From an uncultured Clostridia bacterium (GTDB lineage: Bacteria > Bacillota > Clostridia > Christensenellales > UBA1242): a stretch of DNA of 61,586 bases. The notes beneath the pieces were generated by a model. It was given only the letters and a program-made list of their open reading frames with translations. It was not told where the DNA came from and did no database searches. This document shows positions 5,776 through 55,184 of this stretch, in pieces. The DNA lies in NCBI GenBank assembly GCA_945928645.1, contig CAMENR010000004.1:1-61586 (forward strand), written 5' to 3'. The position numbers and the translations under genes are program-made. Numbering within the stretch: position 1 is the first letter of the stretch; each line of letters starts with the position of its first letter.

Positions 5776-6819
5776 ATGGAAAAGTTAATTGGTATTTCAA
5801 CTTCAAATATTATAACATTGAGTATCACATTGGCTATTTTGATTGCTTTGGTGGTGGCTTTTTGTATTGCAGTGCCTGTAAAAACATGGTGGAGTGCCTT
5901 GTGGGCTGGCGCCTATGTTTCTGCTCGCAAACTATCTTCGCTGAAGTGGCGAAAGGTTGATTATAGAACATTGACATCTTGTTATATCAAGGCAAAGAAG
6001 GCAAATTTGCCTATTAGTTTTGACGACCTAGAAAGTCATCTTTTGTCTGGTGGAAATGTTGTAGGATTGGTGGACGGAATGTCACTAGCTATTGCAAGTG
6101 ATATTGTTTTGTCATTGGATACAGCAAAGGCTATAGATTTGGCTGGGCAAAATATTTGCAAAGTAGTAAACGAAACCATCAAGCCAAAAGTGGTAGAAAG
6201 TGAAACAATTTGCGCTACAACGTGTGATGGGAGAGAGGTTAAAGTGGTTGTGTCTATTGGATTGAAGGCTAGGATATCAAACACAATTGGTGGCTTGGGA
6301 GAAGATGTAATATTGTCTAGAGTTAGGGAAGGTGTTTTGAGTGTTATTGGTGGTGCAAAATCATACAACGACCTTATGCAAAACCCTGACCTTATCTCAA
6401 AATCAGTTTTGGCAAAGGGCTTTGCCAAAGAATGTGCATTTGATGTGGTGTCTTTGGATATCAAATCTATTGAACTAGGCAGAGATTTTGTGGCAGAAAA
6501 AAGAGTAGAACAAGACAAGCGAGATAGAGCAATAGCCCTTTCAAAAGCAGAAGAAACACGACTTTTGGCAGAGGCAAAGACGGAAGAGATGAGAGCCAAA
6601 GCTGAGGAATTGAACGTAGAAAAATTGCAGGCAGAAGCAGAGATACCAAAAGCACTTATAAAGGCATTTGACGAAGGCAAAATTGGGGTTATGGACTATT
6701 ACAAATTGCAAAATATGATAGCAGATACCAATATGCGTAACACCATAACAAAAGACTATGTAAAGCCAGAAAAAGATGACGATGATGACGATGACGATTT
6801 TTTCGATATTAAAAATTAA
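5776..6819 (+). CDS. floA: Flotillin-like protein FloA (SPFH/UPF0365 family)
   Basis: LESHLLSGGNV, AIDLAGQN, PKVVES, VMDYYKLQNM and the EEMRAKAEE coiled coil match my memory of B. subtilis FloA/YqfA along the whole length. Start at ATG 5776 (MEKLIG), since the N-terminal TM begins right after. Asp8 tail at the C-terminus. Confidence 0.85.
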   Translation: MEKLIGISTSNIITLSITLAILIALVVAFCIAVPVKTWWSALWAGAYVSARKLSSLKWRKVDYRTLTSCYIKAKKANLPISFDDLESHLLSGGNVVGLVDGMSLAIASDIVLSLDTAKAIDLAGQNICKVVNETIKPKVVESETICATTCDGREVKVVVSIGLKARISNTIGGLGEDVILSRVREGVLSVIGGAKSYNDLMQNPDLISKSVLAKGFAKECAFDVVSLDIKSIELGRDFVAEKRVEQDKRDRAIALSKAEETRLLAEAKTEEMRAKAEELNVEKLQAEAEIPKALIKAFDEGKIGVMDYYKLQNMIADTNMRNTITKDYVKPEKDDDDDDDDFFDIKN

Positions 6820-6893
6820 AATATAGATAAACAACTATTGATAATAATTCTCAAACAAAAATTGTTCAAATTAACATCAAAAAGGAGGGAAGA

Positions 6894-7721
6894 ATGGATA
6901 TACTTTTTTATATTTGTTGTGCAACTTTTTTGCTCTCTCTTTTTATTCTAAAATTTAAGTGGTTTAAGAAAATTGGCAGTTTACTTGCAAAACCCTTCAT
7001 AAGTTTAATGAAGAAAAATCGTGAGAAAAAAAGAAAGAAAGAGGTTGGAAAGGGAGAAAAAGGTGATAGATTTGGCAAAAGTGAAATGCAGATTAGACCG
7101 GTGGTTTTGCCTCCACAACTAAACCCACCAAAAAAGGAAAATACACAAGAGGTAAAGCCAGCACAAGAAAATGAAGTTAAGTCAAACAATGTTCCACTGA
7201 CCCGTGAAGAAGCATTTGGCAGTGAATCTTTTGCCCCAATGCCAACCAGTGCAACAAGTGTAAAGAAAGACAACTCCTCTTTTGGCACGAAATTTGTTCA
7301 AAAGACAGCTGACAACAGTGCTAATGGGCAAGATAGGATAAAAATTGAAATTCCAAATAATGTTCTAAAAGCAGATAGCAGACAAGAATTTTTTGCCTCT
7401 AAAAAACCTACTCAACCTAGCGGAAAGGTAAAACCTAGTTCGCCATTTTCAACAAGTGATTTGGAAATAAATGATGAATATATAAGGCGAAATTCAACGT
7501 CAAGGGGCTTTTTTGAAAAGGGAAATAACACAGCAAGGGGATTTAGTAATAGTAGGGATAGAGATGCAATTATGGCAAAAAGACAAAAAGAATTTGAATC
7601 CTACAAGCGACAAAAGGACAGCCTTAATATAGACAACAAGGAAATTGACGTAAGCAACCTACCACCAAAACTAAAACGCTTGCTAGTTATGGGCATTTTG
7701 GACAAAAAGAATTATGACTGA
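6894..7721 (+). CDS. Hypothetical membrane-anchored protein, K/P/S-rich disordered
   Basis: 275-aa ORF with a good SD (AAGGAGGG) before ATG 6894. N-terminal TM helix; the remainder is low complexity. No recognisable domain. Confidence 0.55.
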   Translation: MDILFYICCATFLLSLFILKFKWFKKIGSLLAKPFISLMKKNREKKRKKEVGKGEKGDRFGKSEMQIRPVVLPPQLNPPKKENTQEVKPAQENEVKSNNVPLTREEAFGSESFAPMPTSATSVKKDNSSFGTKFVQKTADNSANGQDRIKIEIPNNVLKADSRQEFFASKKPTQPSGKVKPSSPFSTSDLEINDEYIRRNSTSRGFFEKGNNTARGFSNSRDRDAIMAKRQKEFESYKRQKDSLNIDNKEIDVSNLPPKLKRLLVMGILDKKNYD

Positions 7722-8058: not shown

Positions 8059-8757
8059 ATGCCTGAAGAAAGTAAGGAAATGGAGTCAGAAAGAAATAGA
8101 AGGTCTTTGGTTGTTAATCACACAAAGAATATCTTGGGGGCAGACAATAGTCAGGTGCATATTTTCAAAACAAGTGCAGAATACGACAATTTGTTCCCAG
8201 TAGATGTGGCTGTGTTTGAACCAACAGAAGCCTTTAATGGTTATGTGGTGTCCACTGTGGGTTTAAGCGACTACAGATTTTCTGACAACGTTGCTAGGGC
8301 AGAACTTGTTATGGTTTTGCCATCAAGTTATAAGATGTCTTTTGAAAAGCCGGAATATGGTTGGGTGGTTAGGTTTATGGCACAGATGGCTCAGGCATGC
8401 ATATCAGACAACAGTGGCGTCGTGATAGGACAAGTGTTCACATTTTCCAAAGATGGCAAGCCTTGCTTTGCAGGGACCGATTGTATAAGTGGTGTGATAT
8501 CTTTTCCAGAGATGTTTCCATTGGAGTTTTTTGAGGAAAAGATCGGGCTAACTTACACTCATTTTTTGCAAGTTGTTCCACTTAATCAAAATAGATTGGA
8601 GAAGTTAAGGAGTGTGGGGTTTGAAACATTTTTGGACTTTGACTTGCACGATGCAGACGGCCCTGTGATGTTTGCGCCAGAACCACAAAAAGCAAAAGGG
8701 AATTCGCCAATAGACAAAATTATTTCGCACAATGAAGATATTCTTAATGACAAGTGA
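8059..8757 (+). CDS. Suppressor-of-fused (SUFU)-like domain protein
   Basis: The pattern VDVAVFEP..GYVVSTVGLSDYRF...AELVMVLPSSY...GWVVRFMAQMA....HFLQVVPL resembles bacterial SUFU-like proteins. SD AAGGGGGA before the ATG. The family call is from memory of the motif pattern only. Confidence 0.55.
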   Translation: MPEESKEMESERNRRSLVVNHTKNILGADNSQVHIFKTSAEYDNLFPVDVAVFEPTEAFNGYVVSTVGLSDYRFSDNVARAELVMVLPSSYKMSFEKPEYGWVVRFMAQMAQACISDNSGVVIGQVFTFSKDGKPCFAGTDCISGVISFPEMFPLEFFEEKIGLTYTHFLQVVPLNQNRLEKLRSVGFETFLDFDLHDADGPVMFAPEPQKAKGNSPIDKIISHNEDILNDK

Positions 8758-8854
8758 GTTTTGAATTTGTCAAGATTAGTTGTGTTTATACAAAAAGAAT
8801 AAAACTGTTGCCACAAGGTTGTTCCTTGTGGTTAAACATATAATAAGGAAAAAT

Positions 8855-9349
8855 ATGAGAAGAATTTTAGGGATAGACCCCGGATTTGCACTGTTGGGTT
8901 TTGGAGTTGTTGATGAAGATGGTGGCAGACAGACTGCTGTGGATTATGGGGTGATATCTACTCCAAAAGAGCAGAGCATATCTCAAAGGCTTTTGACTAT
9001 TCATCAAGGCATTTTGGCACTGATTGACAAATATCAGCCAGACTGTATGGCGATAGAAGAGTTGTTCTTTTTTCGCAATCAAACTACAATAATACCTGTT
9101 GCAGAGGCTAGGGGAATAATAATTTTGTGTGGGATAGAAAGAAATTTGCCTATGTATGAATATACCCCATTGCAGATAAAACAAGCATTAACTGGCAATG
9201 GCAGGGCAGAAAAGAAACAAATTCAGTTTATGGTCAAAAATATCTTGGGGTTGGAAAAAGCACCAAAACCAGACGATGCGGCAGATGCTGTGGCAGTGGC
9301 ACTTACTCATTTGCAATTTAATGACCAATTAAGTGATAATTCGATATAA
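8855..9349 (+). CDS. ruvC: Crossover junction endodeoxyribonuclease RuvC
   Basis: MRRILGIDPG start and DAADAVAVAL catalytic-Asp region; directly upstream of ruvA-ruvB. ATG 8855 chosen over track start 8780. Confidence 0.9.
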   Translation: MRRILGIDPGFALLGFGVVDEDGGRQTAVDYGVISTPKEQSISQRLLTIHQGILALIDKYQPDCMAIEELFFFRNQTTIIPVAEARGIIILCGIERNLPMYEYTPLQIKQALTGNGRAEKKQIQFMVKNILGLEKAPKPDDAADAVAVALTHLQFNDQLSDNSI

Positions 9350-9966: not shown

Positions 9967-10975
9967 ATGAACGATTTTATCAAAAGCACAAAAATATCAA
10001 GTGATGTGGAGATTGAGAATTCACTTAGACCAGCAGTGTTGAATGATTATGTTGGGCAAGAAAAAGTGAAGGAAAGTCTGTCTATTTTTATACAGGCAGC
10101 AAAGGTGCGAAAAGAACCGCTTGACCATGTATTATTGTATGGACCTCCAGGACTAGGGAAAACAACTCTTTCGCATATTATTGCCACAGAATTGGGCACT
10201 CAACTAAAAGTTACCAGTGGTCCTGCAATAGAACATGCCGCTGACCTTGCCGCAATTCTTACCAATTTGCAAAAAAATGATGTATTATTTATAGACGAAA
10301 TTCACAGACTAAATCATTCTGTGGAGGAAATTTTGTATCCTGCTATGGAAGATTTTTCGTTGGATTTTATCGTAGGCAAAGGTCCAAGTGCAAGAAATAT
10401 GAGGCTAAAACTTCAACCTTTTACTCTTGTTGGAGCGACTACCAAGGCGGGTAATATATCTTCTCCACTAAGGGATAGATTTGGTATTATTCAGAGGTTG
10501 GAACTCTATGACGAGAAAGACTTGTCCAAGATTATCTCTAGAAGTTCAAAAATATTGAATGTGGATATAACTGATGAAGCAATTTTGGAAATTGCAAAAC
10601 GCAGTAGGGGGACTCCAAGAATAGCCAATAGACTGCTAAAAAGGGTGCGAGATTATGCACAAGTAAGGTCTGGTGGAAAGGTTACACTGGATATTTCAAG
10701 AGAAGCCCTAAAATTGATGGATGTGGACGAAAGAGGGTTAGATTTTGTGGATAGACGACTGCTAGAAAGGCTTATCACCACATTTGGTGGCGGGCCTGTA
10801 GGGGTGGAAACCCTTGCAACTGCTATTGGGGAAGAAGTGGCAACTGTGGAAGATGTGTATGAACCATATCTTATAAGACTGGGGTTTGTTGCACGAACTC
10901 CCAGAGGGAGAATTGCTCTTGAGGGGGCATACAAACATTTGGGGCTGGAAGCCCTTTTGCCTAAGGACGTGAAGA

Positions 10976-10995
<20 letters not shown>
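9967..10995 (+). CDS. ruvB: Holliday junction DNA helicase RuvB
   Basis: [15 protein letters not shown], Walker [14 protein letters not shown], Walker [11 protein letters not shown] and [11 protein letters not shown]. Confidence 0.95.
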
Positions 10996-13170
<2,175 letters not shown>

Positions 13171-14644: not shown

Positions 14645-14770
14645 TAGAATTTTTAAGGGAAATGTTATACTAATAAGAATAATTAGAAATGTTAGGGAAA
14701 AGCTATACTAATAAGAACAAACAGAATTTTAAGGGGAATGTTATACTATATAGAGCAAATAGAAATTTTA
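14645..14770 (+). repeat. Degenerate tandem repeat of about 39 bp (3-4 copies), each with a TATACT -10-like core
   Basis: Units start at 14645, 14684, 14723 and 14761. The shared core is AGAAWTTTWAGGGRAAWGYTATACTAWWWAGA. Units 1 and 3 contain TGtTATACT. Confidence 0.6.
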
Positions 14771-42929: not shown

Positions 42930-45900
42930 ATGGATGATGAAGAAGAATTTCTTCCGCCAGGCGCAATAGATGGGCAGATTGAGATTGGCGAACTGTTTGT
43001 GCATGAGGAAGAAAAACCTAAAAATGATGATGATGAAAGGGAAAAAATAGAGGTTGCCGATGGGCAAATGTCTATATTAGATGAACTGTTGGCTAAATGC
43101 AAAAAGGATAGTTTGCAAACAAAAAATGTTGACGAAAATCAAACACAAAAGGAAGATGAAAATTTGAAAAGTAAAGACAGCAAAGACAAATCGAAAACAC
43201 TAAACTCACTGCTTGCTAAGATTGGTGGAGAACCATCAAAAGTGGTAAAAAATATAACAAGCGAGAACAAAACACCAAGCAAAGACGCAAAAGCCCCTAA
43301 TAAACCTGCAAAAGTGGAGAAAAATGTAGAAAAAGCCACAAAAAAGACTGAAAAAGACGAAAAATTAACAACAAAATCGCAAAAAAGCAGTTCAAAATCA
43401 ACTAAAAGTGCCACAAAAGACAGTGAAAAAGGCAAAAAAGGGACAAAGGCAACAAAAGTTGAGAAAGAGCAAGTTTTGAAAGGTTCAAAATCGGCAAAAG
43501 GCAAAAAGGGTAATGAAGAGGAATTAACTTCAACCAAAAAAGAAGCAAAAGTTGATAAGGAAGCAAAAAATAGTAAAAAAGAGCCTGAAATTAAGAAATC
43601 AAAGTCATCTTCACGCAAAAAAACAGAGGAAGTTGACCCTGATATTTTCTTTGACAGTGATGAAAACCAAAAAGTTAGGCATGATGTGGAAGATTTGAAC
43701 AAGGGCTTTGAAGAAGTTGATAGAAATGTTGGAAGAAATGTTTTTGCTGACCTTGGAGATAGAGATGATTACAAAAATTTGAACAGAGTTGACATAGAAG
43801 AAAAAGTGTATATGGAGAACTCTGGCGAAAATATTGGCGATGGTCTGTTGTATAAAAACCTGGACACAGTGCTACATGAGAGTATGATACCTTATTCTGA
43901 GCATGTTATTTTGGATAGGGCTTTGCCACGAGTGGAAGATGGGTTGAAACCTGTTCAGAGAAGGATTTTGTTTGCTATGCACGAATTGGGCAACACTCCA
44001 GACAAACCATTCAAAAAGTCTGCTCGTATCGTGGGTGAAACTTTGGGTAAATATCACCCTCATGGTGATGCTTCTGTGTATGATGCAATGGTCAGATTGG
44101 CGCAAAACTTTAATATGCGTAATATTTTGGTGGAGGGAAACGGAAACTTTGGTAGTGTTGATGGCGACCCACCAGCAGCGGCTCGTTATACAGAGGTTAG
44201 GCTAGCACCAATAGCATTGGAGTTGCTACGAGATTTGGACAAAAACACTGTAAAGTGGGGGCTTAACTTTGATGACACTCAAAAAGAACCTCAGATGTTA
44301 CCTGGTAGATTTCCAAATATTTTAGTTAATGGTTCATCGGGTATTGCAGTGGGGCTGGCTACAAATATCCCTACCCACAACCTTGCAGAAACGATAGATG
44401 GTGTGGTGGCATATATTGACAACCCAAACATAACACTAAAACAAATGATGAAGATTATCAAAGGGCCGGACTTCCCAACAGGTGGGTATATTTTGGAGAG
44501 TTCGGAACTGTATAAGGCGTACGAAACTGGTCGAGGCAAAATATATATTAGGGCAAAGATGCATATTGAAGGAGCGGGAACAGATAGAAAGAGCATTGTA
44601 ATAACGGAATTGCCATATCAAGTGAACAAGGCTAGTCTTCTTCAAAAAATTGCTGGATTTAAGGATGAAGGGAAGTTTGGTTTTGAGGGCATTGCAGAGA
44701 TAAGGGACGAGTCGGATAGGCATGGGCAAAGGGCTGTTTTGCGACTTAAGAAAGATGTGAGTGTCAACAAAATTTATGAGTCACTGCTAAAAAATACCGA
44801 ACTTCAAGGCACTTTTGGAGTGAATATGGTGGCTATTGCTGGTGGTAAGCCAAAGCAAATGGGTCTGTTGGACATTATTTCTTATTACAGTGAGTATCAG
44901 CGAGAAGTTGTGTTAAGAAGAAGCAAGTATGACCTAGAACAAGCGGAAGAAAGGGCTCATATTTTGGAAGGGCTTATCATTGCAATCAAAAATATTGATG
45001 CAGTGGTCAAAATTATCAAGACTTCTCCAAACACCACAGAAGCAAAGAAAAGGTTAAGAGAAAAGTTTATCCTTGACGACAGGCAAGCACAGGCAATACT
45101 GGATATGAGGCTGGCAAGATTGACAAGTCTTGAAGTGAACAAACTTCAGGAGGAGTTGAAAGGGTTAAAAATTCTTATTAAGGAATTGAGGTCTATTGTG
45201 GAAAGCCCAAGAAAACAGTATGAAGTGGTCAAATCCGAATTGTTGCAAATAAAGAAGCAATATAAGAGCGAAAGGCTTACCAAATTCCTAAAAGATGATG
45301 AAAAATTGGTAACAGCGGAAGAAATTGCCGAAAAGGAAAATGATGTAAAGGAATTGGTTCTTCTAAAAACTGCAGAAGAAACCTTTAAGGCTGTGCCATT
45401 AAAACAATACAATTTGAGTGGAAAAGAGTTGGAAGAAGGCTCTACGTTATCACAAGTCCACACCCTCAAACTTAATGTTACTTCAACCTCAAATATTATT
45501 GCTTTTACCAATTTTGGAAATTGTCTTAAGATGGCTGTTTCATCTTTTGGAGAAAGCAGATATAGGGATAAAGGCTCGGTGGATTATTCTATATTTAGGG
45601 ATCTTGGCAAAGACGAGCATATTGTGGCATTGTTTGATGAAAAAGATGTGAAGGGGAAAGAAAATCTTATATTCCTAACCAAATTTGGTATGATAAAAAA
45701 GACTGCTAGGGAGGAATATACTCTGCTAAAAAAGACCTATCAAGCAATCAAACTGAAAGAGGGAGATGAACTATTGTCCGTTGTGCCAGAGCCAAAGGAA
45801 GACTGGACAATAATGTTTGTTACAAAAGACGGAATGGTTCTTAATGCAAAGACTGATGATATACCTTTGCAGGGACGTGTGGCAGGTGGTGTTAAGGGGG

Positions 45901-46250
45901 TTGCTCTTGGTGCAAAGGATATATGTGTGTGTGCTAGCATTTGTCAAAAAGATGCTGGCGAGGTGTTGATTGTCTGCGATAAAGGATTGGCAAAACGAAC
46001 AACTGTAAAATCTATTGAGCAGAGTGTGAGATATAGAAAAGGGCAAAAAATTGTTGGAACAGGCAACAATGTTGTGTTTGCAGATGTGATAACTGAGCCA
46101 AAAACCTTGTGTGTGATAGATAGTAGCAACGAACTTCACTTCAAAACCACTGACCTTGTGGCAATAGATAGTAGAACGGGTAAGGGTAAGCCATTTGACA
46201 AACAGCAGAAAAACCTTGCTCCAAAGAAAGCCTTTTTGCCGATAACATAA
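42930..46250 (+). CDS. parC: Type IIA topoisomerase A subunit, ParC-like, with an N-terminal lysine-rich extension of about 290 aa
   Basis: Core starts near [29 protein letters not shown], with [17 protein letters not shown] and the active-site AAARYTE. I saw no QRRGGKG-type GyrA box at the start of the C-terminal beta-pinwheel. The frame is open from ATG 42930, 69 nt after parE. Confidence 0.8.
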
Positions 46251-47260: not shown

Positions 47261-47287
47261 TGCAAAAAAAACAAAGGGAGATTGAAA

Positions 47288-47938
47288 ATGAATTACGAAT
47301 TGATGGAAAACAACAAGGTTTTCCTTAAGGGGATTGTTTCTTCTGAAGCAAAATTTAGTCATGAGGTTTTTGGAGAGGGCTTTTATGAATTGAATATCAA
47401 AGTTGCTCGACTTTCTGACAACTTTGACATTGTGCCTGTTACTGTTTCCGAAAAACTATTGGCAGGGGATTGTTTTGCATTGGGCAAGGAGGTTGCTATT
47501 AGGGGACAATTTAGGAGTTATAACAAGATGGTTGACGGTAAAAGTAAGTTATTGCTGACTGTTTTTGTGCGAAATATTATAGAAATGGACGATTCTATCA
47601 ATCCAAATATTGTAGAATTGACTGGGTTTGTGTGCAAAGAACCTGTGTTTAGGACGACCCCTTTTGGCAGGGAGATATGTGATGTGTTGTTGGCAGTTAA
47701 TAGGGCTTATAACAAGTCAGATTATTTGCCTTGTATTGCTTGGGGAAGAAATGCTAGATATGTAAAAACAATAAAAGTAGGTCAAAAGGTAGATGTGGTC
47801 GGCAGGATTCAGAGTAGAGAATATCAAAAGAAATTGTCTGACACAGAAGTGGAAACTCGGGTTGCATACGAACTTTCTATCGGCAAAATTCATCTTTCGC
47901 AAGATGAGCAAAGAGAAGGCGACATACAACTTGCATAA
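47288..47938 (+). CDS. SSB-family protein with two tandem OB folds, no acidic C-terminal tip
   Basis: Both halves follow the SSB pattern. The second half especially: VELTGFVCKEPVFRTTPFGREICDVLLAVNR....CIAWGRNARYV..IKVGQKVDVVGRIQSREY. ATG 47288 after SD GGGAGA. Ends in REGDIQLA rather than a DDDIPF-like tip. Confidence 0.6.
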   Translation: MNYELMENNKVFLKGIVSSEAKFSHEVFGEGFYELNIKVARLSDNFDIVPVTVSEKLLAGDCFALGKEVAIRGQFRSYNKMVDGKSKLLLTVFVRNIIEMDDSINPNIVELTGFVCKEPVFRTTPFGREICDVLLAVNRAYNKSDYLPCIAWGRNARYVKTIKVGQKVDVVGRIQSREYQKKLSDTEVETRVAYELSIGKIHLSQDEQREGDIQLA

Positions 47939-48143
47939 GTTATAAGTTTGAAAAAATATTATGTAATATAAATGTAAAATATATATCAAGTTAGAGTGAT
48001 ATAAAAAAGTTAAATTGTAATAAAAAAAGTATATAATTGTTTTATACTTATAAAGATTGCATATAACAACATGTTTGTATCAAGGTATTTTATTGATTAA
48101 AGATAAAAGTATAAGAGAAAAATTAAGAGAATAATTTATGCAT

Positions 48144-48177
48144 AAACCTTTGGATTGCGTGTCTGAAGGTTTTTTGT
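48144..48177 (+). terminator. Rho-independent terminator about 200 nt downstream of the SSB-like gene
   Basis: AAACCTT (48144-48150) pairs with AAGGTTT (48165-48171), 14-nt loop, T-run. Confidence 0.5.
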
Positions 48178-48454
48178 TATATAAAAGCGCTTGTAGCAAA
48201 AGAGAGGGGATAAAATAAAAACTTTGAAAAGAATAAACTCGTTTTGCAATGAATTTTCGCTTATTGATTCAATATTTTAACAAATATCGAACAAATGTTT
48301 GATAAAAATGATATTGTGGACTCACACTGACATATTTTGGGTTGTATCATTGGCTAACAAAATGATTTTTTGCTTAAAACTGGTGCTATTTTGAGCAAAA
48401 AAAATAATTTTGTAAAAAAATATTAAAAAATATTAAAAAATGTGTCACTACTTC

Positions 48455-48483
48455 TTGACTTTTGAAAATATGGCTTATAAAAT
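48455..48483 (+). promoter_or_regulatory. Candidate promoter (TTGACT-17-TAAAAT)
   Basis: TTGACT at 48455-48460, TAAAAT at 48478-48483, upstream of ATG 48529 (SD AGAGAGGA). Confidence 0.4.
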
Positions 48484-48528
48484 GAAAATGTAGGGTGGCG
48501 AAAAATGTAGAAAAAGAGAGGATTTTTT

Positions 48529-49062
48529 ATGGATATTGAAATTTGTTGTAAGGCGCTATTGTCTATATATAAGTTGCTACCAGCATTGTGTGATAGTATA
48601 GACAAGATTGTGGTAGCAAGGGCGATTGCTCCTGTTACGGTGGAAAATGAAGGGACGTTTAGACAAACCAACTCGGTAATTGCCTTGTCATCACAAAAGG
48701 TTAATTTGATAAATGTAAAAGTAATGATGGACAAGACCTTGGCTCAGATGGATGAAAGTTTGGCAAGAATTATTATCAATCATTTTATAGACGGAGTGAA
48801 AAGTGATGAATGCGCAAAGTTATTAGGCTGGTCTAGAAGGGAATATTTTAGAAAGTCAAAACAAGCTCTTAAAAGTTTTCAATGGGGGTTTTTAACAAAT
48901 CTTTTGAAGGAAAGGAAGGTTTATGACGAATTTTTTAAGGGACTGTTTTGGCAAGACACAATGGAAAGAATTGGCACTTTTGCAAATTCTGGTGGCAAAA
49001 TAGAAAGTTGTCCAGATATGGTTTGCAACCTAATTTTGAAGAGATTGAGGAGAATATTGTAA
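48529..49062 (+). CDS. Sigma-70 region-4-like HTH protein, resembling phage late-gene activators (RinA/ArpU/DUF1492-type)
   Basis: LARIIINHFIDGVKSDECAKLLGWSRREYFRKSKQALKSF has the shape of a sigma region-4 HTH. It lies upstream of a terminase remnant. The family call is tentative. Confidence 0.4.
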   Translation: MDIEICCKALLSIYKLLPALCDSIDKIVVARAIAPVTVENEGTFRQTNSVIALSSQKVNLINVKVMMDKTLAQMDESLARIIINHFIDGVKSDECAKLLGWSRREYFRKSKQALKSFQWGFLTNLLKERKVYDEFFKGLFWQDTMERIGTFANSGGKIESCPDMVCNLILKRLRRIL

Positions 49063-49100
49063 AAGTCCTGCAAATGTAACAAATTTTTGTGTGGTTGTCG

Positions 49101-50075
49101 TTAAATGGTGTGGTCTGTGATGTCTTCTATTTGGCGTATTGTTTTGGAGTTAAGTTTGTTTTTGGGGGTGTGAGATGTAAGGGATTTTTCTATTTTATAA
49201 GGTTTTAGCAGTAGGTATATAAGCAGTAGAACTGGGAGTGTGGTGAATAATATTATCAATATCTTTGATAAAAGAGAGATGTTTACCAAATTGTATAGAT
49301 AGTCGTTGCTTTCGCCAAAAGGGGTTGAAAGAGGGGTTGTTTGCTCGGTGTTGAGGGGAATATGTGACAGTTGGTCGGTAAGACCTTTGTAGATGTAACC
49401 ACTCTCGCCAGTTGGAGTAGTGCCAAAATACCACGTAGAACCTCTGCCAGAAATATTTTCTTGCCCTATAGACTTGCCATAATACTTAATAATTGTGTTT
49501 TGCTCAACGGTCGTTATGACTGTTGGGCTTTTTGATGTGGGGTTGGCAACCATTTCTGTTCCACCTGGGGTATAAACCCTAAAAGTTACACCCTCGAGAT
49601 AAGGTGTTTCTGGGGTTTCTTTTACGGGAGTTACAGAACTTTTGAGGACAAAGCCTGTGAGGTCTTGATACATAACTTTGTAGAACAAATTGTTGTAATC
49701 GGAAAGTAGCCCTACAAAGTAACTTTCTGGGATTTCAAAAAGAATATTAGATTGTTCTGTGCTTTGGGCAGACTTATAAAGATACACTCCACTGGTTTCT
49801 GCACGAGCATAGACATAACTTGTAAGTGAAGGGGTAAGGCGAGGTTGAAAGGTGGCATATACGGGGTGGTGGAGGAGGGAAAAAGTGCCAAAGATAGTTG
49901 CAATAATGGATAAGATTGCAACTGCCAAAATAAAAAACCTTGTGCGAGAGGTTGAGTTGTGTTTGCTGAAAGTGTTTTTCAATTCTTTAACTCCTTTTGA
50001 GCAAGTTTTGAACGAAAATTTTGTTCGGCTTTGTCTTAAGAAGTTGAGATGTTTTGATAAGTTTTGTATCAACAT
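49101..50075 (-). CDS. Membrane protein with two SH3b-like repeats between N- and C-terminal TM helices
   Basis: TM (FFILAVAILSIIATIFGTF), then two segments with an SH3b-like pattern (VYARAETSGVYLYKS...FYKVMYQDLTGFVLKSSV and VTFRVYTPGG...WYFGTTPTGESGYIYKGL), then a C-terminal TM. The start is uncertain (ATG 50075 or TTG 50093) and no SD is present. Confidence 0.5.
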   Translation of the reverse strand: MLIQNLSKHLNFLRQSRTKFSFKTCSKGVKELKNTFSKHNSTSRTRFFILAVAILSIIATIFGTFSLLHHPVYATFQPRLTPSLTSYVYARAETSGVYLYKSAQSTEQSNILFEIPESYFVGLLSDYNNLFYKVMYQDLTGFVLKSSVTPVKETPETPYLEGVTFRVYTPGGTEMVANPTSKSPTVITTVEQNTIIKYYGKSIGQENISGRGSTWYFGTTPTGESGYIYKGLTDQLSHIPLNTEQTTPLSTPFGESNDYLYNLVNISLLSKILIILFTTLPVLLLIYLLLKPYKIEKSLTSHTPKNKLNSKTIRQIEDITDHTI

Positions 50076-50129
50076 TTTAGCAAAGAAAAACAAAAAATTG
50101 AACGGAGAGATTGTCGAAAGGAATGGATT

Positions 50130-51149
50130 ATGGAAGAAAAAGATGAGAAAACAGAAAACCTAAGAGAAATTGTTGTCAAATTGCGTGATATTTATAACAT
50201 TTTGCAATCTCGCAAAAATGATAAACTGGCAAATTACAACAAAGGGGAAAAGATACACAAAAAACAATTGGCTTTTCATCAATGCCAGAAGAAAAATAGG
50301 TGGGTTTTTGGTGGAAATAGAACGGGCAAAACAGAATGTGGTGCAGTGGAATGTGTTTGGCTGGCAAGGGGGATACACCCATATAGGACAAATAAAAAGG
50401 ATTGTTGTGGTTGGGTGGTTAGTGTATCACAGCAAGTGCAAAGAGATGTGGCTCAGAAGAAGATTTTGAGTTATATCCGACCAGAGTGGATTGTAGATAT
50501 TGTTATGTTGTCTGGCAGGAAAGATTTTGCAGAAGGTGGGGTAATAGATTTTATTAAGATAAAGAATGTGTTTGGTGGAGAGAGTGTGATTGGGTTTAAG
50601 AGTTGCGACCAAGGCAGAGAAAAGTTTCAGGGGGCAAGTTTGGACTATGTTTGGTTTGATGAGGAACCGTCAAAGGATATTTATCTAGAGTGCAAGATGA
50701 GAGTTATGGATAGGTGCGGAGAAATATTTGCAACTATGACTCCACTAAAAAATCTTTCGTGGGTTTATGATGAAATATTTATGAACAGAAATGGTGATGA
50801 TGAGGTTTGGTATGAGCAGATGCAGTGGGAGGATAATCCCTTTTTAGATGCAAAAGAGGTGGAATATTTTGAAAAATCTATGAGTGCAGACGACCTTGAA
50901 AGCAGGAAATATGGACATTTTATTGGTGCTTGTGGCTTGGTGTATAAAGATTTTGACCAAAATGTGAATGTAATTGAGCCTTTTGATGTGCCAAAGGAAT
51001 GGTTTGATACTATGTCTATCGACCCTGGTCTTAATAATCCTCTCTCTTGCCATTGGTATGCTGTGGATTACGATGGCAATGTGTTTGTGGTGGCGGAACA
51101 TCTTTACGCACCAGAAGTCTGGTGCTTTTTTATATCAAAAATGGGGTAA
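50130..51149 (+). pseudogene. Phage terminase large subunit, truncated after the ATPase domain
   Basis: Walker A GGNRTGKTE, Walker B LDYVWFDEEP and ATMTPL coupling motif. The frame ends about 25 aa after SIDPGLNNP, the first acidic motif of the nuclease domain. No continuation in any frame. Confidence 0.7.
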
Positions 51150-51295
51150 AACAGGGGTGTTTGGCGGTGTTTCAGGGTGGAAGTAAGGCAAATCAGACAA
51201 ATTTTAATCTTTGTTTGGTTTTATGATATTTCTGGTGCGTTAATTCTTGCATAGTTTTAGGGTGCAACACATACACAAAAAAGTCTGATTTTTTC

Positions 51296-51322
51296 AACAA
51301 AAAAGCACCGGTTGACCGGTGC
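51296..51322 (-). terminator. Rho-independent terminator of the repeat-protein gene
   Basis: GCACCGG / CCGGTGC perfect 7-bp GC-rich stem (51305-51322), 4-nt loop, followed on the minus strand by a T-run (the A-run at 51298-51304 on plus). Confidence 0.7.
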
Positions 51323-51327
51323 AGTTA

Positions 51328-51591
51328 TTAACTTATTTTTGCCATGTTTGGATATAACATTTGCAAGAATAGGTTGCCTCTGCCGACTTGATGACCATAT
51401 CTATCATAGGTGTAATTGCCGTCAAATTTGGCAATTTGATGTCCATAGCCGTCATACAAATAATATGTAGAGCCAGAACTTTGTATTTTGCCAATTTGAT
51501 GACCATACCCATCATAGCACATGGTATTACTGCCACTTTCCTGAATTTTGCCGATTTGGTGACCGTATCTGTCGTAAACTGTTTTTGACAT
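51328..51591 (-). CDS. 87-aa tandem-repeat protein (four YD-x-YGHQ[IV][GA][KR] units), function unknown
   Basis: Strong SD GGAGG (51597-51601 on minus), TGcTATACT extended -10 at 51615-51623 (minus) and its own terminator. Repeats are spaced 20, 20 and 16 aa apart and are also visible as DNA repeats. Confidence 0.7.
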   Translation of the reverse strand: MSKTVYDRYGHQIGKIQESGSNTMCYDGYGHQIGKIQSSGSTYYLYDGYGHQIAKFDGNYTYDRYGHQVGRGNLFLQMLYPNMAKIS

Positions 51592-51687
51592 AAAAACCTC
51601 CTTTAATTATTAAAAGTATAGCACAATTATTTAATTCAAAGCAAGAAAATAAAGTCGCTATGTGTCCGGTTTTTAGTACATTAGTTT

Positions 51688-51696
51688 TGATATACT
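51688..51696 (+). promoter_or_regulatory. Extended -10 TGaTATACT upstream of the mini-ATPase gene
   Basis: TG at 51688-51689, TATACT at 51691-51696. SD TAGGAGG and ATG 51718 lie downstream. Divergent from the repeat-gene promoter in a 126-bp spacer. Confidence 0.4.
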
Positions 51697-51717
51697 ATAA
51701 AAACACTAGGAGGCAAT

Positions 51718-52296
51718 ATGAAACCATACAAAGTAGAATTTGATGAAGTTATATCAGACAAAGACATTAAAGATGGGAATGTTATTATGCTTACAGGGAG
51801 ACCTGGAACAGGGAAAACTTTGACTTGTTGTAGGTTGATAAAGAAATATGAAGGCAAATATAAAAGTCTCTATTTTAATTTGTCAGGCGATGGTTTGTCA
51901 TACTGGTTTAAAAATAAAATCCCTGACAATATACTCAACAGGTATCACACTTCAGTTGAAATTATAAAAAAGGTTGAGGATGTTCTTTCAACTGAAAATT
52001 TGAAATTTGTTTTTATTGATTATTGGCAGTTGATAAATGACCAAGAAGAGTGGTTTATACGAAAGTTAATCGAATTCTCATACAACAATAAAATTGTATT
52101 TATTATTACGACACAATTGCCTAGAAAAATTGTAAAAGGGAAATATCAAATGACTATAAAGAAAAAATTGGCTAAAATGAATAATTTAAGCATCTGGGCA
52201 AGAAAGCACATTGTAATTTGCAGAAAATATGTATATGAATCAAGTGGCGTTGAAGATGATCTGGAGTATTTCGTGTATAGACATGGTTTTGAATAA
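51718..52296 (+). CDS. Stand-alone DnaB-helicase-C-terminal-like (RecA-fold) P-loop ATPase, 192 aa
   Basis: Walker A GRPGTGKT. FVFIDYWQLI matches the DnaB Walker B block (..IDYLQL.). IITTQLPRKI matches the DnaB SQLSR block. No N-terminal DnaB domain. Strong SD. Confidence 0.65.
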   Translation: MKPYKVEFDEVISDKDIKDGNVIMLTGRPGTGKTLTCCRLIKKYEGKYKSLYFNLSGDGLSYWFKNKIPDNILNRYHTSVEIIKKVEDVLSTENLKFVFIDYWQLINDQEEWFIRKLIEFSYNNKIVFIITTQLPRKIVKGKYQMTIKKKLAKMNNLSIWARKHIVICRKYVYESSGVEDDLEYFVYRHGFE

Positions 52297-52322
52297 AATT
52301 TGCCATTTCAATGTACGATTTG

Positions 52323-52351
52323 TTGGATATTGCGAAAAAATATGTTATACT
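52323..52351 (+). promoter_or_regulatory. Candidate promoter of the WYL-nuclease pair (TTGGAT-17-TGtTATACT)
   Basis: TTGGAT at 52323-52328, 17-nt spacer including TG at 52343-52344, TATACT at 52346-52351, 19 nt before ATG 52370. Confidence 0.4.
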
Positions 52352-52369
52352 TACAAAAGAGGTAATATT

Positions 52370-53353
52370 ATGGCAAGTGAGTCAAATAAAAAACTTTCAA
52401 TAATATACACACTTGAAATATTAAAAGAATATAGTGACGAAAACCATTTGTTAACTCAAGCCGATATTGCAAAACTTATATCACAAGTTTATGGTATGGA
52501 GTGCGAAAGGAAGTCTATCGCAACGAATATTGAATCGTTAATTGATTTAGGTATTGATATCATAAAAGTAGCACATAAAGGTTGCTATATCGGGGAGAGA
52601 GTTTTAGAGCCGAGTGAAATTTCGTTCATTATAGATGCGTTGTTTACAAGTAAATCGATAAATGGAAAGCAAGCAAAAGACTTATCTCAAAAATTATCGA
52701 ATTTATTAAGTAGGCATCAACGCAAAAAATATAACTTCATTTATAAGGCAGACAAAGTAACCAGAACAGGGAATTATGACCTTTTCTATAATATTGAGAT
52801 GATACAAGAGGCTATAAGTAACAACAAAAAAATTTCTTTTGTTTATAACAGACCAGGAATAGAAAACAAAAAGAAACCTTATGTTGTAAATCCATATTTT
52901 CTGATAAGCAGTCAGGGAAGATATTATTTGGTTTGCAATTTTGATTATTATAATGAGATTAGCAATTATAAGGTTGATTTCATCAACGATATAAAAATTC
53001 TTGATGAAGAACGCAAACCTATAACTGAAGTAGAGAATTATGAGAATGGCATCGATATAGCGAAGTATGCTAATGAGCACATATATGCATTCAGTGATAA
53101 GACAGTGACGGCAACTTTAAAACTTGCTGACGAAGGGTCGGCTTCGTACATAATTGAATGGTTTGGTAAAGACTCAAAGATATACAAAAAGGGTGATATA
53201 ACTTTTGCGGAAGTTGTATCTAACGAGCAGGCTTTGATTTATTGGTGCATTCAATATGGCGAAAATGTTGAGTTAATACAGCCAAACGACACTAGAAACA
53301 AAATAAAAAATCTAATATCGATGATAAACGATAAATACAATGGAGGTAAGTAA
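52370..53353 (+). CDS. WYL-domain transcriptional regulator (wHTH-WYL-WCX; BrxR/CapW-like architecture)
   Basis: N-terminal wHTH (LSIIYTLEILKEYSDENHLLTQADIAKLI...ERKSIATNIESLIDLGIDI), WYL-type core (GRYYLVCNFDYYNEISNYKVDFINDIKIL), C-terminal extension (LIYWCIQYGENVELIQP). ATG 52370 chosen; track start 52229 lies inside the ATPase gene. Confidence 0.8.
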   Translation: MASESNKKLSIIYTLEILKEYSDENHLLTQADIAKLISQVYGMECERKSIATNIESLIDLGIDIIKVAHKGCYIGERVLEPSEISFIIDALFTSKSINGKQAKDLSQKLSNLLSRHQRKKYNFIYKADKVTRTGNYDLFYNIEMIQEAISNNKKISFVYNRPGIENKKKPYVVNPYFLISSQGRYYLVCNFDYYNEISNYKVDFINDIKILDEERKPITEVENYENGIDIAKYANEHIYAFSDKTVTATLKLADEGSASYIIEWFGKDSKIYKKGDITFAEVVSNEQALIYWCIQYGENVELIQPNDTRNKIKNLISMINDKYNGGK

Positions 53354-53354
53354 T

Positions 53355-55184
53355 ATGGAGAGTGGTAAAAAACCTTTAGACGAGATTTTTAATGGTAACA
53401 AATATTTTTGTATACCTTATTATCAAAGGAGTTACTCTTGGGAAGAAAAACAACTAAAAGATTTTTATGATGATTTTGAAACGCAATATGTAAGTAATTA
53501 CTATTATGGTACTATACTTTTGCAATCAAAAGAAAAAATAAAGAGTAGGGAAATCTTTGATATTGTTGATGGCCAACAAAGATTGACAACATTAATAATT
53601 TTCGTTTCATGTCTTATAAAGCGAATGAGAGAATTAAATTTCAAAGAAAAAGACTGTATCGACCTCGAAAGTTGTTATATTAAAGACGATGAGGGGAGAT
53701 TTATATTGTCTTTGCAAGATGAGGACAACGATTTCTTTAATACTTATGTTCTTGGTGACAAAAATCCAACATCAAAAGAAACACCTTCACAAAAGAGATT
53801 GTTCGATGCGAAAGAGTATTTTACTAACGCACTTAACAATGTTGATGAAGGAAAAATAAACGAATTTATCGATAAAATCTATACAACAAATGTTTTAGTT
53901 TATTTGATGGTAAACGAGATTGAATCATCAATGATTTTTGAAACAACAAACGACCGAGGAAAAGCATTGACAAATCTTGAAAAAACAAAAAGTTTTCTTA
54001 TGTATAAGGCGTGTGTACTTTCGGATGATGCATCGCAAATAATAAACAAAATTCGTTCAAGATTTAATGAAATTTATAGAGACTATTCAGATATTGAAAA
54101 CGATGTCAAAGATGAGAATGCTATATTATACTATTCTTTCATCGCAAATGAAAAATGGGCATCTACAGGCAAAAAGAAAGATTATCAGCACTATATGGAA
54201 ATAATGAAACAAAATGTTGATAAATTTATTACTAAAAAAGACTCAAAAGGATTGCTAAATTATATCGAGAATTATACTCTTCACATTAAAGAGTCTTTTG
54301 CAATCATGAAAAGTATATTGTTAAATAGATGCGATGAATTTCAAGATGTTTTAGCATTAGAGCGTGTTGCGAATTTTTATCCACTTTTTATAAAATGTTA
54401 TGGATTAGATGAAACAGAAGGTAAAGACAACTTTAAATTGATTTGCAGACTTTGTGAAATTTTTAGTTTTAGAATCTATGTTATTCTTGGAAACTTATCA
54501 AACAAAGCACAAACAACATGGTATGCGCTAGCAAGAGATTTTAATGGTGATTTTCAAAAACTTGCAAGTGATATAGTAAAACTTATAAAAAGTATTGATA
54601 CAGAGGATTCGTTTATTGAAAAGTTGCAAGATAAAAAGTTCTATACAACATATGAAACAAGTGAAAGAAATTATTTCTTCTGGAAGTATGAAAACTATCT
54701 TCGAGAAAATGAACAACCAACAGCGACACCTATGTCACATGACGATTTGTTTGAAAAGAAAAATAAAAAGTTAAAATTGTCTATTGAACATATAGTAGCA
54801 CAAAGTAATAATGGGGAGCAAAGCAGGATCATAAGTGATGAATCTGTCATAAAGGTTGGTGTCGCAAGTAAGTTCGAAAAGGAATATTTGCACAGCATTG
54901 GAAATTTGACCATTGATCCTCAATCTGCAAATTCAAGCAAAGGCAAGCAAGATGTTGAGGCTAAAATGACTAAATATTTTGTAAAAGCACCATACAAATG
55001 TCAGAATGAACTTTCTGATTTCCTTATAAAAGAAAAAAAGTCAGAGAGATGGACTATTGAAAGTATTGAAAAACGAAGGGATAAAATTTTGGATTTTGCA
55101 AGAGCAACTTGGTGTGATATTGATAAATATGAAATAGCAGATCAAGATACCAATATTGTGGTTGAAGACGGAGAGGAAGAATAA
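53355..55184 (+). CDS. DUF262-DUF1524 (GmrSD/BrxU-type) type IV restriction-like nuclease
   Basis: N-terminal DUF262 motifs (FCIPYYQRSYSWEEKQ, DIVDGQQRLTTL). C-terminal His-Me/DUF1524 motifs (LSIEHIVAQS, HSIGNLTIDPQSANSSKGKQD). ATG 53355 is 1 nt after the WYL stop, and its SD GGAGG lies inside the WYL gene. Confidence 0.85.
   Translation: MESGKKPLDEIFNGNKYFCIPYYQRSYSWEEKQLKDFYDDFETQYVSNYYYGTILLQSKEKIKSREIFDIVDGQQRLTTLIIFVSCLIKRMRELNFKEKDCIDLESCYIKDDEGRFILSLQDEDNDFFNTYVLGDKNPTSKETPSQKRLFDAKEYFTNALNNVDEGKINEFIDKIYTTNVLVYLMVNEIESSMIFETTNDRGKALTNLEKTKSFLMYKACVLSDDASQIINKIRSRFNEIYRDYSDIENDVKDENAILYYSFIANEKWASTGKKKDYQHYMEIMKQNVDKFITKKDSKGLLNYIENYTLHIKESFAIMKSILLNRCDEFQDVLALERVANFYPLFIKCYGLDETEGKDNFKLICRLCEIFSFRIYVILGNLSNKAQTTWYALARDFNGDFQKLASDIVKLIKSIDTEDSFIEKLQDKKFYTTYETSERNYFFWKYENYLRENEQPTATPMSHDDLFEKKNKKLKLSIEHIVAQSNNGEQSRIISDESVIKVGVASKFEKEYLHSIGNLTIDPQSANSSKGKQDVEAKMTKYFVKAPYKCQNELSDFLIKEKKSERWTIESIEKRRDKILDFARATWCDIDKYEIADQDTNIVVEDGEEE

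Follow-up and report, generated by a model that had tools for sequence, protein, structure and literature searches.

A WYL regulator-centred, putative two-slot anti-phage cassette with a DnaB C-terminal-domain-like mini-ATPase in an uncultured Clostridia bacterium

Introduction

In a survey of the WYL-domain regulator BrxR, 37 of the 210 BrxR-associated systems were type IV enzymes (PMC9122601), and WYL repressors of the CapW type leave DNA once their WYL domain binds single-stranded DNA (ssDNA) (PMC11662680). Among GmrSD-like proteins, HEC-06 is a single-gene defence in which the DGQQR and E-H motifs are essential (bioRxiv 10.1101/2024.01.29.577857); a HEC-06 homologue of gut Bacteroides defends in a modification-dependent manner. 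Here we analyse a four-gene cassette found in a stretch of 61,586 nucleotides (nt) from an uncultured Clostridia bacterium (GenBank assembly GCA_945928645.1, contig CAMENR010000004.1, positions 1 to 61,586; hereafter the window). In this cassette a gene for a GmrSD-family nuclease follows a gene for a WYL regulator, and the regulator is preceded by a gene for a small protein resembling the C-terminal domain of the DnaB helicase, hereafter the mini-ATPase. The mini-ATPase gene turned out to be retained next to the WYL gene in other genomes while the nuclease is exchanged.

An earlier reading of the sequence (the original prediction) had drawn attention to the cassette as a defence-like set of four genes. 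Our open reading frame (ORF) calls and translations agree with it on the coordinates of all four genes, and each peptide quoted there (GRPGTGKT, FVFIDYWQLI, TTQLPRKI, DGQQRLTTL, IEHIVAQS and GNLT..N..KG) was found in the translations. The genes are as follows.

51328-51591, minus strand: gene for an 87-amino-acid (aa) four-repeat protein
51718-52296, plus strand: gene for a 192-aa DnaB C-terminal-domain-like P-loop protein (mini-ATPase)
52370-53353, plus strand: gene for a 327-aa WYL-WCX regulator
53355-55184, plus strand: gene for a 609-aa GmrSD-family (DUF262 and DUF1524) nuclease, HEC-06 type

Results

The nuclease and its regulator

The 609-aa protein had been proposed to combine DUF262 with DUF1524, and both Pfam domains were recovered far over their cut-offs: GmrSD_N at 8.7e-34 (117.8 bits; cut-off 33.2) and GmrSD_C at 2.9e-15 (56.8 bits; cut-off 23). 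The PADLOC HEC-06 model PDLC04154 matched at 2e-45, with residues 1-591 aligned to profile positions 1-564 of 569; among solved chains in the PDB, a match was obtained for the N-terminal domain only (9jfl_B, 8e-12). The protein retains the DGQQR motif of nucleoside triphosphate (NTP) hydrolysis, and its IEHIVAQS and GNLT..N..KG blocks are the counterpart of the EHICP motif of HEC-06. It therefore resembles HEC-06, GmrSD and BrxU as well as SspE in having both domains, the full-length match to the HEC-06 profile, and the DGQQR and E-H motifs. Judged by these matches, the nuclease is a full-length HEC-06-type GmrSD. It differs from HEC-06 in that its gene is transcribed behind a WYL regulator and is not embedded in a Hachiman (Hma) system.

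The junction between the two genes is as tight as predicted. One base separates the TAA of the regulator gene (53351-53353) from the nuclease ATG at 53355, and GGAGGT (53342-53347) lies within the regulator gene; on sequence grounds, the nuclease gene is translationally coupled to the regulator gene. A longer nuclease ORF reading from 53340 is unlikely, because that ATG falls inside the Shine-Dalgarno sequence.

In the 327-aa regulator, Pfam detected the WYL domain (PF13280) at 1.5e-12 (47.7 bits; cut-off 21.8), and WCX at 2e-4 with 22.0 bits, under the cut-off of 23.9. A PADLOC WYL model matched at 2.1e-26, and model PDLC01457 covers residues 26-307. No helix-turn-helix (HTH) model of Pfam matched at E<=0.1, and the winged HTH at the N-terminus is presumed. 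The regulator shares with BrxR and CapW (i) a WYL domain and a putative WCX-like C-terminus, (ii) a gene position directly upstream of, and coupled to, a defence nuclease, and (iii) a palindromic site in its own promoter. That the regulator-nuclease pair follows a known theme, as had been claimed, is borne out by the BrxR survey, in which type IV restriction enzymes are frequent companions of BrxR homologues (PMC9122601). In contrast, the regulator has no sequence-detectable similarity to the solved chains of BrxR, CapW, DriD or PafBC, since neither phmmer nor a six-sequence profile gave any relevant match among all PDB sequences. Its host is a Firmicute, whereas the BrxR survey covers mostly Proteobacteria. 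Furthermore, it stands in the middle of a two-slot cassette, of which the upstream slot is often occupied by an NTPase under the same operator; no such two-slot arrangement around a WYL regulator is described in the literature searched. The nuclease family and the regulator-nuclease theme are already known, and the regulator is BrxR/CapW-like but fails membership by sequence homology.

The mini-ATPase

The 192-aa protein carries a Walker A motif (GRPGTGKT), a Walker B motif (FVFIDYWQL) and an H3-like block (TTQLPRK). In Pfam, AAA_22 was over its cut-off, and DnaB_C (9.6e-6, 25.6 bits) fell just under its cut-off of 27. A profile of 23 family members searched against PDB sequences retrieved SPP1 G40P (the best match, 8.5e-9) and bacterial DnaB helicases, with alignments spanning the IDYLQL and SQLSR..P..DL blocks. 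The AlphaFold2 (AF2) model of the mini-ATPase (predicted local distance difference test score, pLDDT, 87) gave DnaB C-terminal domains as its top Foldseek matches (TMq 0.70-0.77, E 1e-9). The family profile and the Foldseek search both uphold the DnaB-C-like fold put forward originally, and according to this model the protein is a stand-alone DnaB C-terminal RecA-fold domain.

The mini-ATPase shares with DnaB (SPP1 G40P and the V. cholerae, E. coli and Taq proteins) the RecA-type fold, the Walker A pattern RPxxGKT, the Walker B pattern IDYxQL and the H3-like block SQLxR...P..DL. Nevertheless, it is 192 aa long and lacks both the N-terminal domain and the linker helix, so that the match begins at the C-terminal domain of DnaB. 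In addition, the family alignment shows no conservation of the RESG(x)IEQDAD block, which contains the arginine finger and H4; the residue at the catalytic glutamate position varies, and the Walker A lysine is missing from several relatives. Because of these differences, we do not regard the mini-ATPase as a helicase. Across 38 members, Walker A is intact in 33 and Walker B in 37, and the Walker A lysine was lost in four.

The original prediction assigned such an ATPase to no named system, and PADLOC-DB v2 indeed returned partial matches only, to AbiO, mad8 and Nhi, restricted to the P-loop and part of the core (E 7e-8 to 1.4e-6). The match to mad8 is weak as well as partial, and a literature search on mad8 of MADS added nothing informative. 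A word-indexed search of 5.8 billion proteins yielded four relatives, and an exhaustive profile search about 22 clusters (181-206 aa; E <1e-19, most <1e-27), past which the scores fall to generic DnaB and RecA-type proteins. All members are derived from metagenomes or metagenome-assembled genomes (MAGs), and most are singletons. No relative was found in 50,697 phage records or 72,556 plasmids by tblastn with the window protein, in IMG/VR viral contigs by a pattern scan, or in any tested defence clone. A pattern scan of GTDB genomes with the ATPase alignment also found none, its patterns being too narrow; the WYL-seeded scan described below later recovered members in loci L036-L039. Proteins of mainly 240 aa from a scan of metagenome contigs were rejected as family members, as they matched in Walker A only and led by tblastn to phage DnaC-like helicase loaders. 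An iterated hidden Markov model of the ATPase drifted to such loaders, and its scores were discarded; the family assignment rests on the 23-sequence profile, per-protein Pfam matches to DnaB_C and inspection of motifs.

The mini-ATPase is linked to the WYL regulator

The loci retrieved with the mini-ATPase, like the related sequences in general, are nearly all MAG or metagenome contigs, on which the genes are our own ORF calls. Their gene orders are listed below with the identity of each ATPase to that in the window; "beta-flower" denotes homologues of the 87-aa protein, described later, and R-M restriction-modification.

L001 and L002 (69%): beta-flower, ATPase, WYL, GmrSD
L003 (45%): beta-flower, ATPase, WYL, then reversed YpsA, HTH gene and type III R-M; no adjacent nuclease
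L004 (47%): beta-flower, ATPase, WYL (contig end)
L006 and L007 (44%): unrelated 63-aa gene, ATPase, WYL, GmrSD
L030 (37%): ATPase, WYL (contig end)
L032 (29%) and L034 (40%): ATPase, WYL, PDDEXK_4
L033 (about 35%): ATPase, weakly PD-(D/E)XK-like 157-aa protein, then type I R-M
L035 (about 43%): ATPase, DEDDh exonuclease; a separate AAA+/M41-WYL-GIY-YIG cassette lies 2 kb upstream
L031 (about 33%): ATPase, 145-aa gene with no known function

The WYL gene lies directly downstream of the ATPase gene in seven of ten distinct places outside the window (L001/L002, L003, L004, L006/L007, L030, L032 and L034). Identities between the window and L001 amount to 69% for the ATPase and 76% for the WYL protein, and the two GmrSD proteins share 27% across an alignment of about 500 residues (39% in a BLASTP segment of 66 residues). 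At L037 the corresponding values are 61% for GmrSD, 41% for the ATPase and 70% for the WYL protein. Recurrence of the ATPase beside WYL and GmrSD genes in unrelated genomes had been put forward as a check; it held for the pairing with WYL but not for that with GmrSD, as the nuclease is swapped within the window's WYL clade. The conserved linkage is that of the ATPase with the WYL regulator, not with GmrSD.

A scan seeded with the WYL protein, using one genome per species, gave 287 relatives in gut Clostridia genomes. We retrieved 80 of the loci, almost all of them in MAGs of Clostridia and Christensenellales from gut or rumen. The usual layout in these loci, all on one strand, is an upstream gene, about 50 nt, the WYL gene, about 10 nt, and a downstream gene. 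Upstream genes of the DnaB_C-like type keep a fixed spacing of 48-60 nt to WYL, and all four of the closest WYL genes (68-72% identity; L036-L039) have the mini-ATPase directly upstream. By Pfam, the 60 immediate upstream genes comprise 19 DnaB_C, four AAA+/M41, four Metallophos and assorted others. With L040 and L042 included, at least seven loci carry AAA+/M41 upstream, some at slightly larger spacing; the encoded proteins are soluble proteases with an IetA-like AAA domain. An SMC-like ATPase, DUF2779, RNase H-like and Macro proteins and a reverse transcriptase also occupy this slot. The 64 downstream genes include PDDEXK_4 (8), GmrSD (7), GIY-YIG (7), Mrr (2) and others, at least 24 belonging to the four named types. 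PADLOC searches linked the GIY-YIG proteins to UzuA (2.8e-45) and those with PDDEXK_4 to PDC-S26; given these matches and that to HEC-06, the downstream slot is filled with known single-gene defences or candidates for such.

The two slots behave differently in the window's WYL clade: every upstream gene there is of the DnaB_C-like type, while the downstream position switches between PDDEXK_4 and GmrSD genes of unrelated lineages. The GmrSD lineage of L001 is also found behind WYL genes that have AAA+/M41 upstream (L040 and L042). On a simple neighbour-joining tree of the WYL proteins, with slot changes counted by Fitch parsimony, the upstream type required 33 changes (minimum 29, shuffled mean 42) and the downstream type 44 (minimum 33, shuffled mean 53.7). 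The identity of WYL proteins did not follow that of the downstream proteins (rho 0.05). Identities of ATPase and WYL proteins gave an overall rho of 0.70, which mainly reflects a split into two clades, and we dropped this value as strong evidence of co-evolution.

A WYL clade at 34-37% identity has a longer DnaB_C-type protein of 229-257 aa upstream, followed by WYL and then by GIY-YIG (Uzume-like), Mrr-like or unknown proteins. Since BLASTP matched them to the mini-ATPase in Walker A only, these longer proteins were rejected as orthologues and are treated as a parallel group; L069, a member of this group, retains IDYLQLL and SQISR. In L068-L080 and L108 the upstream DnaB_C-type proteins share 30-87% mutual identity, against 82-98% for the adjacent WYL proteins, and the ATPase gene in this clade seems either to have diverged very fast or to have been replaced repeatedly.

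Two variant arrangements were also seen. At L087 (5857-9259) the DnaB_C-type gene (8420-9259) lies downstream of the pair formed by WYL and the downstream gene, so that the association is kept and the order changed. At L050, in one Clostridia MAG, two WYL-centred cassettes (5962-6993 and 10756-11751) lie about 4 kb apart.

A palindrome shared by the ATPase and WYL promoters

The divergent control region between the 87-aa gene and the ATPase gene (51592-51717) measures 126 bp, as predicted. The following elements were located in this region and in front of the WYL gene.

51615-51623, minus strand: extended -10, TGCTATACT, of the 87-aa gene
51663-51680: operator-like palindrome, TGTCCGGTTTTTAGTACA, separated by 7 nt from the TG of the extended -10 of the ATPase gene and covering about -40 to -23
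51688-51696, plus strand: extended -10, TGATATACT, of the ATPase gene, conserved in the intergenic alignment
52312-52329, plus strand: second operator-like site, TGTACGATTTGTTGGATA, separated by 13 nt from the TG of the extended -10 of the WYL gene
52343-52351, plus strand: extended -10, TGTTATACT, of the WYL-nuclease operon

An alignment of intergenic regions revealed a conserved palindrome, TGTMC-N8-GKAYA, which overlies the -35 and spacer region in both the ATPase and the WYL promoters. The window contains three such sites (four strand-matches), against 0.30 expected. The ATPase-promoter palindrome recurs at equal spacing in L003, L004, L034-L037, L069 and L074-L077, and the WYL-promoter palindrome at equal position in L003 and L004. 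Over 88 loci, the stretch 20-90 nt upstream of WYL starts contains the palindrome 11 times (0.41 expected), and of 26 ATPase-type genes, half (13) have it just upstream (0.58 expected); some AAA+/M41 genes are preceded by it as well. In the divergent region, the palindrome does not overlap the promoter of the 87-aa gene. Most naturally, it is the WYL protein that would bind at these sites and control both transcription units.

The locus L035 (755-6932) presents two cassettes side by side: AAA+/M41, WYL (54% identical to that in the window) and GIY-YIG are followed by a reversed Nmad3 gene, a mini-ATPase gene with an upstream palindrome, and the DEDDh exonuclease gene. A single WYL protein may control both.

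The original prediction had also singled out TGnTATACT as an unusual promoter element preceding all three transcription units. The element is present at the three positions, but it is not unusual, as nine copies occur in the window against 1.86 expected, and we rejected it as a signature of the cassette. The six other copies are at 14663, 14739, 24664, 26016, 55434 (minus strand) and 59890, at least two of which (24664 and 26016) are about 20-30 nt upstream of ORF starts. From its abundance and from the copies that precede other ORFs, TGnTATACT appears to be a general extended -10 of the window and the standard strong promoter form of this organism.

The 87-aa protein as a predicted beta-flower

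The tandem repeats claimed for the 87-aa gene are real, with four internal repeats and 30-nt copies spaced 48, 60 and 60 nt apart. Tandem Repeats Finder reported none in this gene, since the repeats are too diverged for it; they were revealed by another repeat search. The AF2 model (pLDDT 95) consists of eight strands and a C-terminal helix (residues 75-79), and all four repeats bear D-G/R-Y-G tips. Beta-flowers are described as symmetric barrels of four to six beta-hairpin petals with [DNEQ]xxG tips, often enclosing a C-terminal helix, in the passages of the defining paper that set out the fold (Durairaj et al. 2023, PMC10584680). The 87-aa protein likewise has four beta-hairpin repeats, the [DNEQ]xxG tip and a hydrophobic C-terminal helix, and its predicted fold is that of a four-fold beta-flower plus this helix. 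The protein differs from the Pfam beta-flower families (PF21784 and PF21785) in scoring under their cut-offs (16.9 bits against 25 and 17.3 against 38, respectively) and in having no signal peptide or lipobox. Foldseek gave no significant match in the PDB for the model; 1zxu, which ranks second (E 0.18), is the Tubby-like relative named in the relevant passage of the beta-flower paper. The passages of that paper at hand make no mention of a defence-cassette context for the fold, and PADLOC-DB v2 contains no match to the protein.

Homologues of the 87-aa protein outside the window were found only in L001/L002, L003 and L004. As the repeat protein is confined to this one sub-clade, a fixed four-gene system is not conserved, and the packaging of the four genes envisaged originally did not hold up; judged from its distribution, the 87-aa protein is a lineage-specific companion of the cassette. 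At L006 (4047-4292; L007, 4111-4356), right after GmrSD, we noticed a gene whose 81-aa product consists of short repeats of the HFGDxKVE type. This is also a small tandem-repeat protein of beta type, unrelated in sequence to the 87-aa protein of the window, and is followed by Fic and methyltransferase genes.

Neither PADLOC v2 nor the literature searched contained the mini-ATPase family, its association with WYL, the operator common to both or the accompanying beta-flower.

Surroundings of the cassette

Three further features lie next to the cassette.

50064-51149, plus strand: truncated terminase large subunit (Terminase_6N, 3.6e-15), outside the cassette
51108-51125, plus strand: GC-rich, terminator-like hairpin with T-run at the terminase break-point, part of local inverted repeats
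51305-51322, minus strand: terminator-like hairpin directly 3' of the 87-aa gene, with a 7-bp stem (6 GC pairs) and a T-run

The terminase ORF had been described as cut off. It indeed retains the N-terminal ATPase domain only, and the truncation is real because its alignment covers only the first two-thirds or so (about residues 1-311) of a 468-aa phage TerL. Inverted repeats cluster at this break-point (51103-51322): 14-nt arms at 51103-51116 and 51230-51243 are 93% complementary, and 35-nt arms at 51108-51142 and 51288-51322, connecting the two terminator-like hairpins, are 71% complementary. The cluster may be a recombination scar. The prophage break-point to which the cassette had been assigned is genuine, but its significance for the cassette is incidental, because no other locus has the flanks of the window. 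A repeat search disclosed no convincing flanking direct repeats or att-like sites around 51.1-55.3 kb.

The neighbourhood is chromosomal, with genes for GyrB/GyrA-type topoisomerases, a polysaccharide deacetylase, an SSB-domain protein, a sigma-r4/DUF1492-like protein and a 1923-aa surface protein. The host belongs to an uncultured lineage of gut Clostridia, and its GyrB is 81% identical to the best MAG matches. The GyrA/ParC-type ORF (42930-46250) encodes 1106 aa, in which the DNA_topoisoIV domain begins only at residue 330, and the first 340 residues have no Pfam match, pointing to an unusual N-terminal extension or an inserted element. The region upstream of the terminase fragment (47282-50093) possibly holds further prophage remnants. 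It encodes the SSB-domain protein, which has a 108-aa N-terminal extension without Pfam match, the weakly sigma-70 region 4/DUF1492-like protein (PHROG transcription regulator), and a reverse-strand 330-aa ORF whose only match is a weak, sub-threshold one to SH3_3.

Discussion

As a whole, the locus is best explained, if tentatively, as a WYL-centred two-slot anti-phage cassette in which the mini-ATPase belongs to the control and sensing module. The parts of this explanation differ in strength. We consider it quite probable that the locus is a modular, WYL-controlled defence cassette with GmrSD as a self-sufficient effector, and the cassette is most likely a compact and horizontally shuffled one, built around the WYL-WCX transcription factor. 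That the mini-ATPase is a sensor or relay partner of WYL is suggested with more reserve.

In the downstream slot, the HEC-06-type GmrSD, coupled to the regulator, would be a type IV, modification-dependent cutter that needs no partner, and the upstream slot would provide a DnaB C-terminal-domain-like mini P-loop protein under its own promoter. In an uninfected cell, a WYL dimer would sit on both operators and keep the ATPase and the regulator-nuclease operon low. Upon infection, a nucleic-acid signal (ssDNA) would bind the WYL domain and release the repressor, both units would be expressed, and GmrSD would then cut modified phage DNA. The mini-ATPase, a fast-evolving RecA-fold protein, could bind ATP together with a second ligand, ssDNA or a replication protein of the phage, and relay or amplify the derepression. 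It would then belong with the control and sensing module and not with the nuclease, by a logic like that of RecA-LexA, where recA is in the regulon. The cassette resembles RecA-LexA, CapH-CapP and ImmR-ImmA in that a RecA-fold or protease partner is encoded beside a repressor and within its putative regulon, and the alternative gene in the upstream slot near WYL is that of an AAA+/M41 protease. The comparison with these pairs is an analogy only, and repression, the ssDNA signal and the ATPase role are our inferences. ssDNA is the signal for CapW, DriD and PafBC, and WYL proteins can sense it unaided.

Several observations weigh against this explanation. (i) In L031, L033 and L035 the ATPase has no adjacent WYL gene, and another small gene, nuclease-like in two cases, comes next. 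(ii) The correlation between ATPase and WYL identities is only weak inside each of the two subfamilies (rho 0.31 and 0.41). (iii) The upstream slot also holds proteins that are not NTPases (Metallophos, DUF2779 and RNase H-like), which makes it look more like a place for free cargo than for a dedicated co-sensor. (iv) Four ATPase members lack the Walker A lysine, and the residue aligned with the catalytic glutamate is not conserved. (v) The WYL-promoter palindrome is centred at about -37.5, a position that would also suit an activator. (vi) As the regulator has no sequence-detectable relative among solved WYL structures, its repressor behaviour and ssDNA sensing are extrapolations.

Alternatively, the locus could be a mini defence island with independent arms, in which WYL co-regulates two unrelated single-gene defences. 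We consider this somewhat unlikely; as a role for the ATPase, an independent effector is nearly as likely as a relay. The ATPase could, for example, be a dominant-negative or decoy copy of the C-terminal domain of the replicative helicase, sequestering the helicase loaders of phages or poisoning their replisomes. Such an arm would fit the great diversity of the upstream slot, where AAA+/M41, Metallophos, SMC-like ATPase, DUF2779, Macro and reverse transcriptase genes all occur, and the resemblance of downstream genes to HEC-06, UzuA and PDC-S26. The ATPase has its own promoter and operator and occurs without adjacent WYL in three loci, and it lacks the N-terminal domain and linker helix for a DnaB hexamer and, in some members, the Walker A lysine. 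In one clade it also evolves much faster than WYL, as would be expected if it contacted phage factors. On the other hand, the DnaB_C-like type tracks the WYL clades closely at its fixed spacing, and no member was found in the phage, plasmid and viral-contig collections or the tested defence clones. To our knowledge, no single-gene defence has a DnaB C-terminal-domain fold.

An integrated system, in which the ATPase is a sensor, loader or motor cofactor of the nuclease and WYL is merely an embedded regulator, strikes us as improbable. It is true that pairs of an ATPase and a nuclease are a common defence design, and that a gene follows the ATPase, directly or after WYL, in all sufficiently long contexts except L003. 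These genes encode GmrSD, PDDEXK_4, the DEDDh exonuclease of L035 or the weakly PD-(D/E)XK-like protein of L033; in the subfamily of longer proteins they are of GIY-YIG or Mrr-like type. However, nucleases of at least five unrelated folds make a specific physical partnership unlikely, and HEC-06 homologues provide defence from a single gene. As the nucleases are both unrelated and self-sufficient, a cofactor role dedicated to the nuclease is unlikely. The idea that the ATPase is a loader for the nuclease, raised in the original prediction, fares no better: at L001 an ATPase 69% identical to that in the window accompanies a GmrSD of 27% identity, the L001-type GmrSD itself occurs with AAA+/M41 in place of the mini-ATPase, L003 has beta-flower, ATPase and WYL genes with no nuclease adjacent, and WYL and downstream identities are uncorrelated.

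Finally, although the cassette abuts a truncated terminase and other phage-like genes, and DnaB-type domains are typical of phage replication modules, it is very improbable that the ATPase and HTH regulator are replication or regulation left-overs of a prophage or mobile element beside an unrelated type IV restriction gene, given that the phage, plasmid and IMG/VR searches found no ATPase relative, that the cassette stands in unrelated flanks elsewhere, consistently with nucleases and the shared operator, and that its genes are intact with good Shine-Dalgarno sequences and promoters.

Returning to the WYL-centred cassette, it is attractive to speculate that the ATPase-WYL pair is a new kind of infection sensor, in which a fast-evolving mimic of the helicase C-terminal domain detects phage ssDNA or helicase loaders, switches off the repressor and unleashes the downstream nuclease. 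NTPase-WYL-nuclease cassettes, with DnaB_C-like or AAA+/M41 genes upstream and GmrSD, PDDEXK_4, Uzume-like GIY-YIG or Mrr genes downstream, would then be widespread, with the beta-flower as an added modulator. This bolder version is, in our estimate, doubtful.

The silencing and switching-on of defence systems are much less understood than phage killing, and WYL repressors are among the regulators now being characterised. The present locus points to a DnaB C-terminal domain in pared-down form as a recurrent partner of a Firmicute WYL clade; this partner is kept while at least five nuclease types are exchanged. The cassette also supplies a genomic context for the recently defined beta-flower fold and, for gut bacteria of an uncultured group, a candidate operator sequence. 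An ATPase acting as sensor or relay would tie the transcriptional regulation of immunity to phage replication, through helicase and ssDNA; an ATPase acting as effector would represent a new single-gene defence that works by mimicry of the replicative helicase. Should the NTPase-WYL-nuclease reading be true, these loci would constitute an unrecognised and widespread defence architecture of gut Clostridia.

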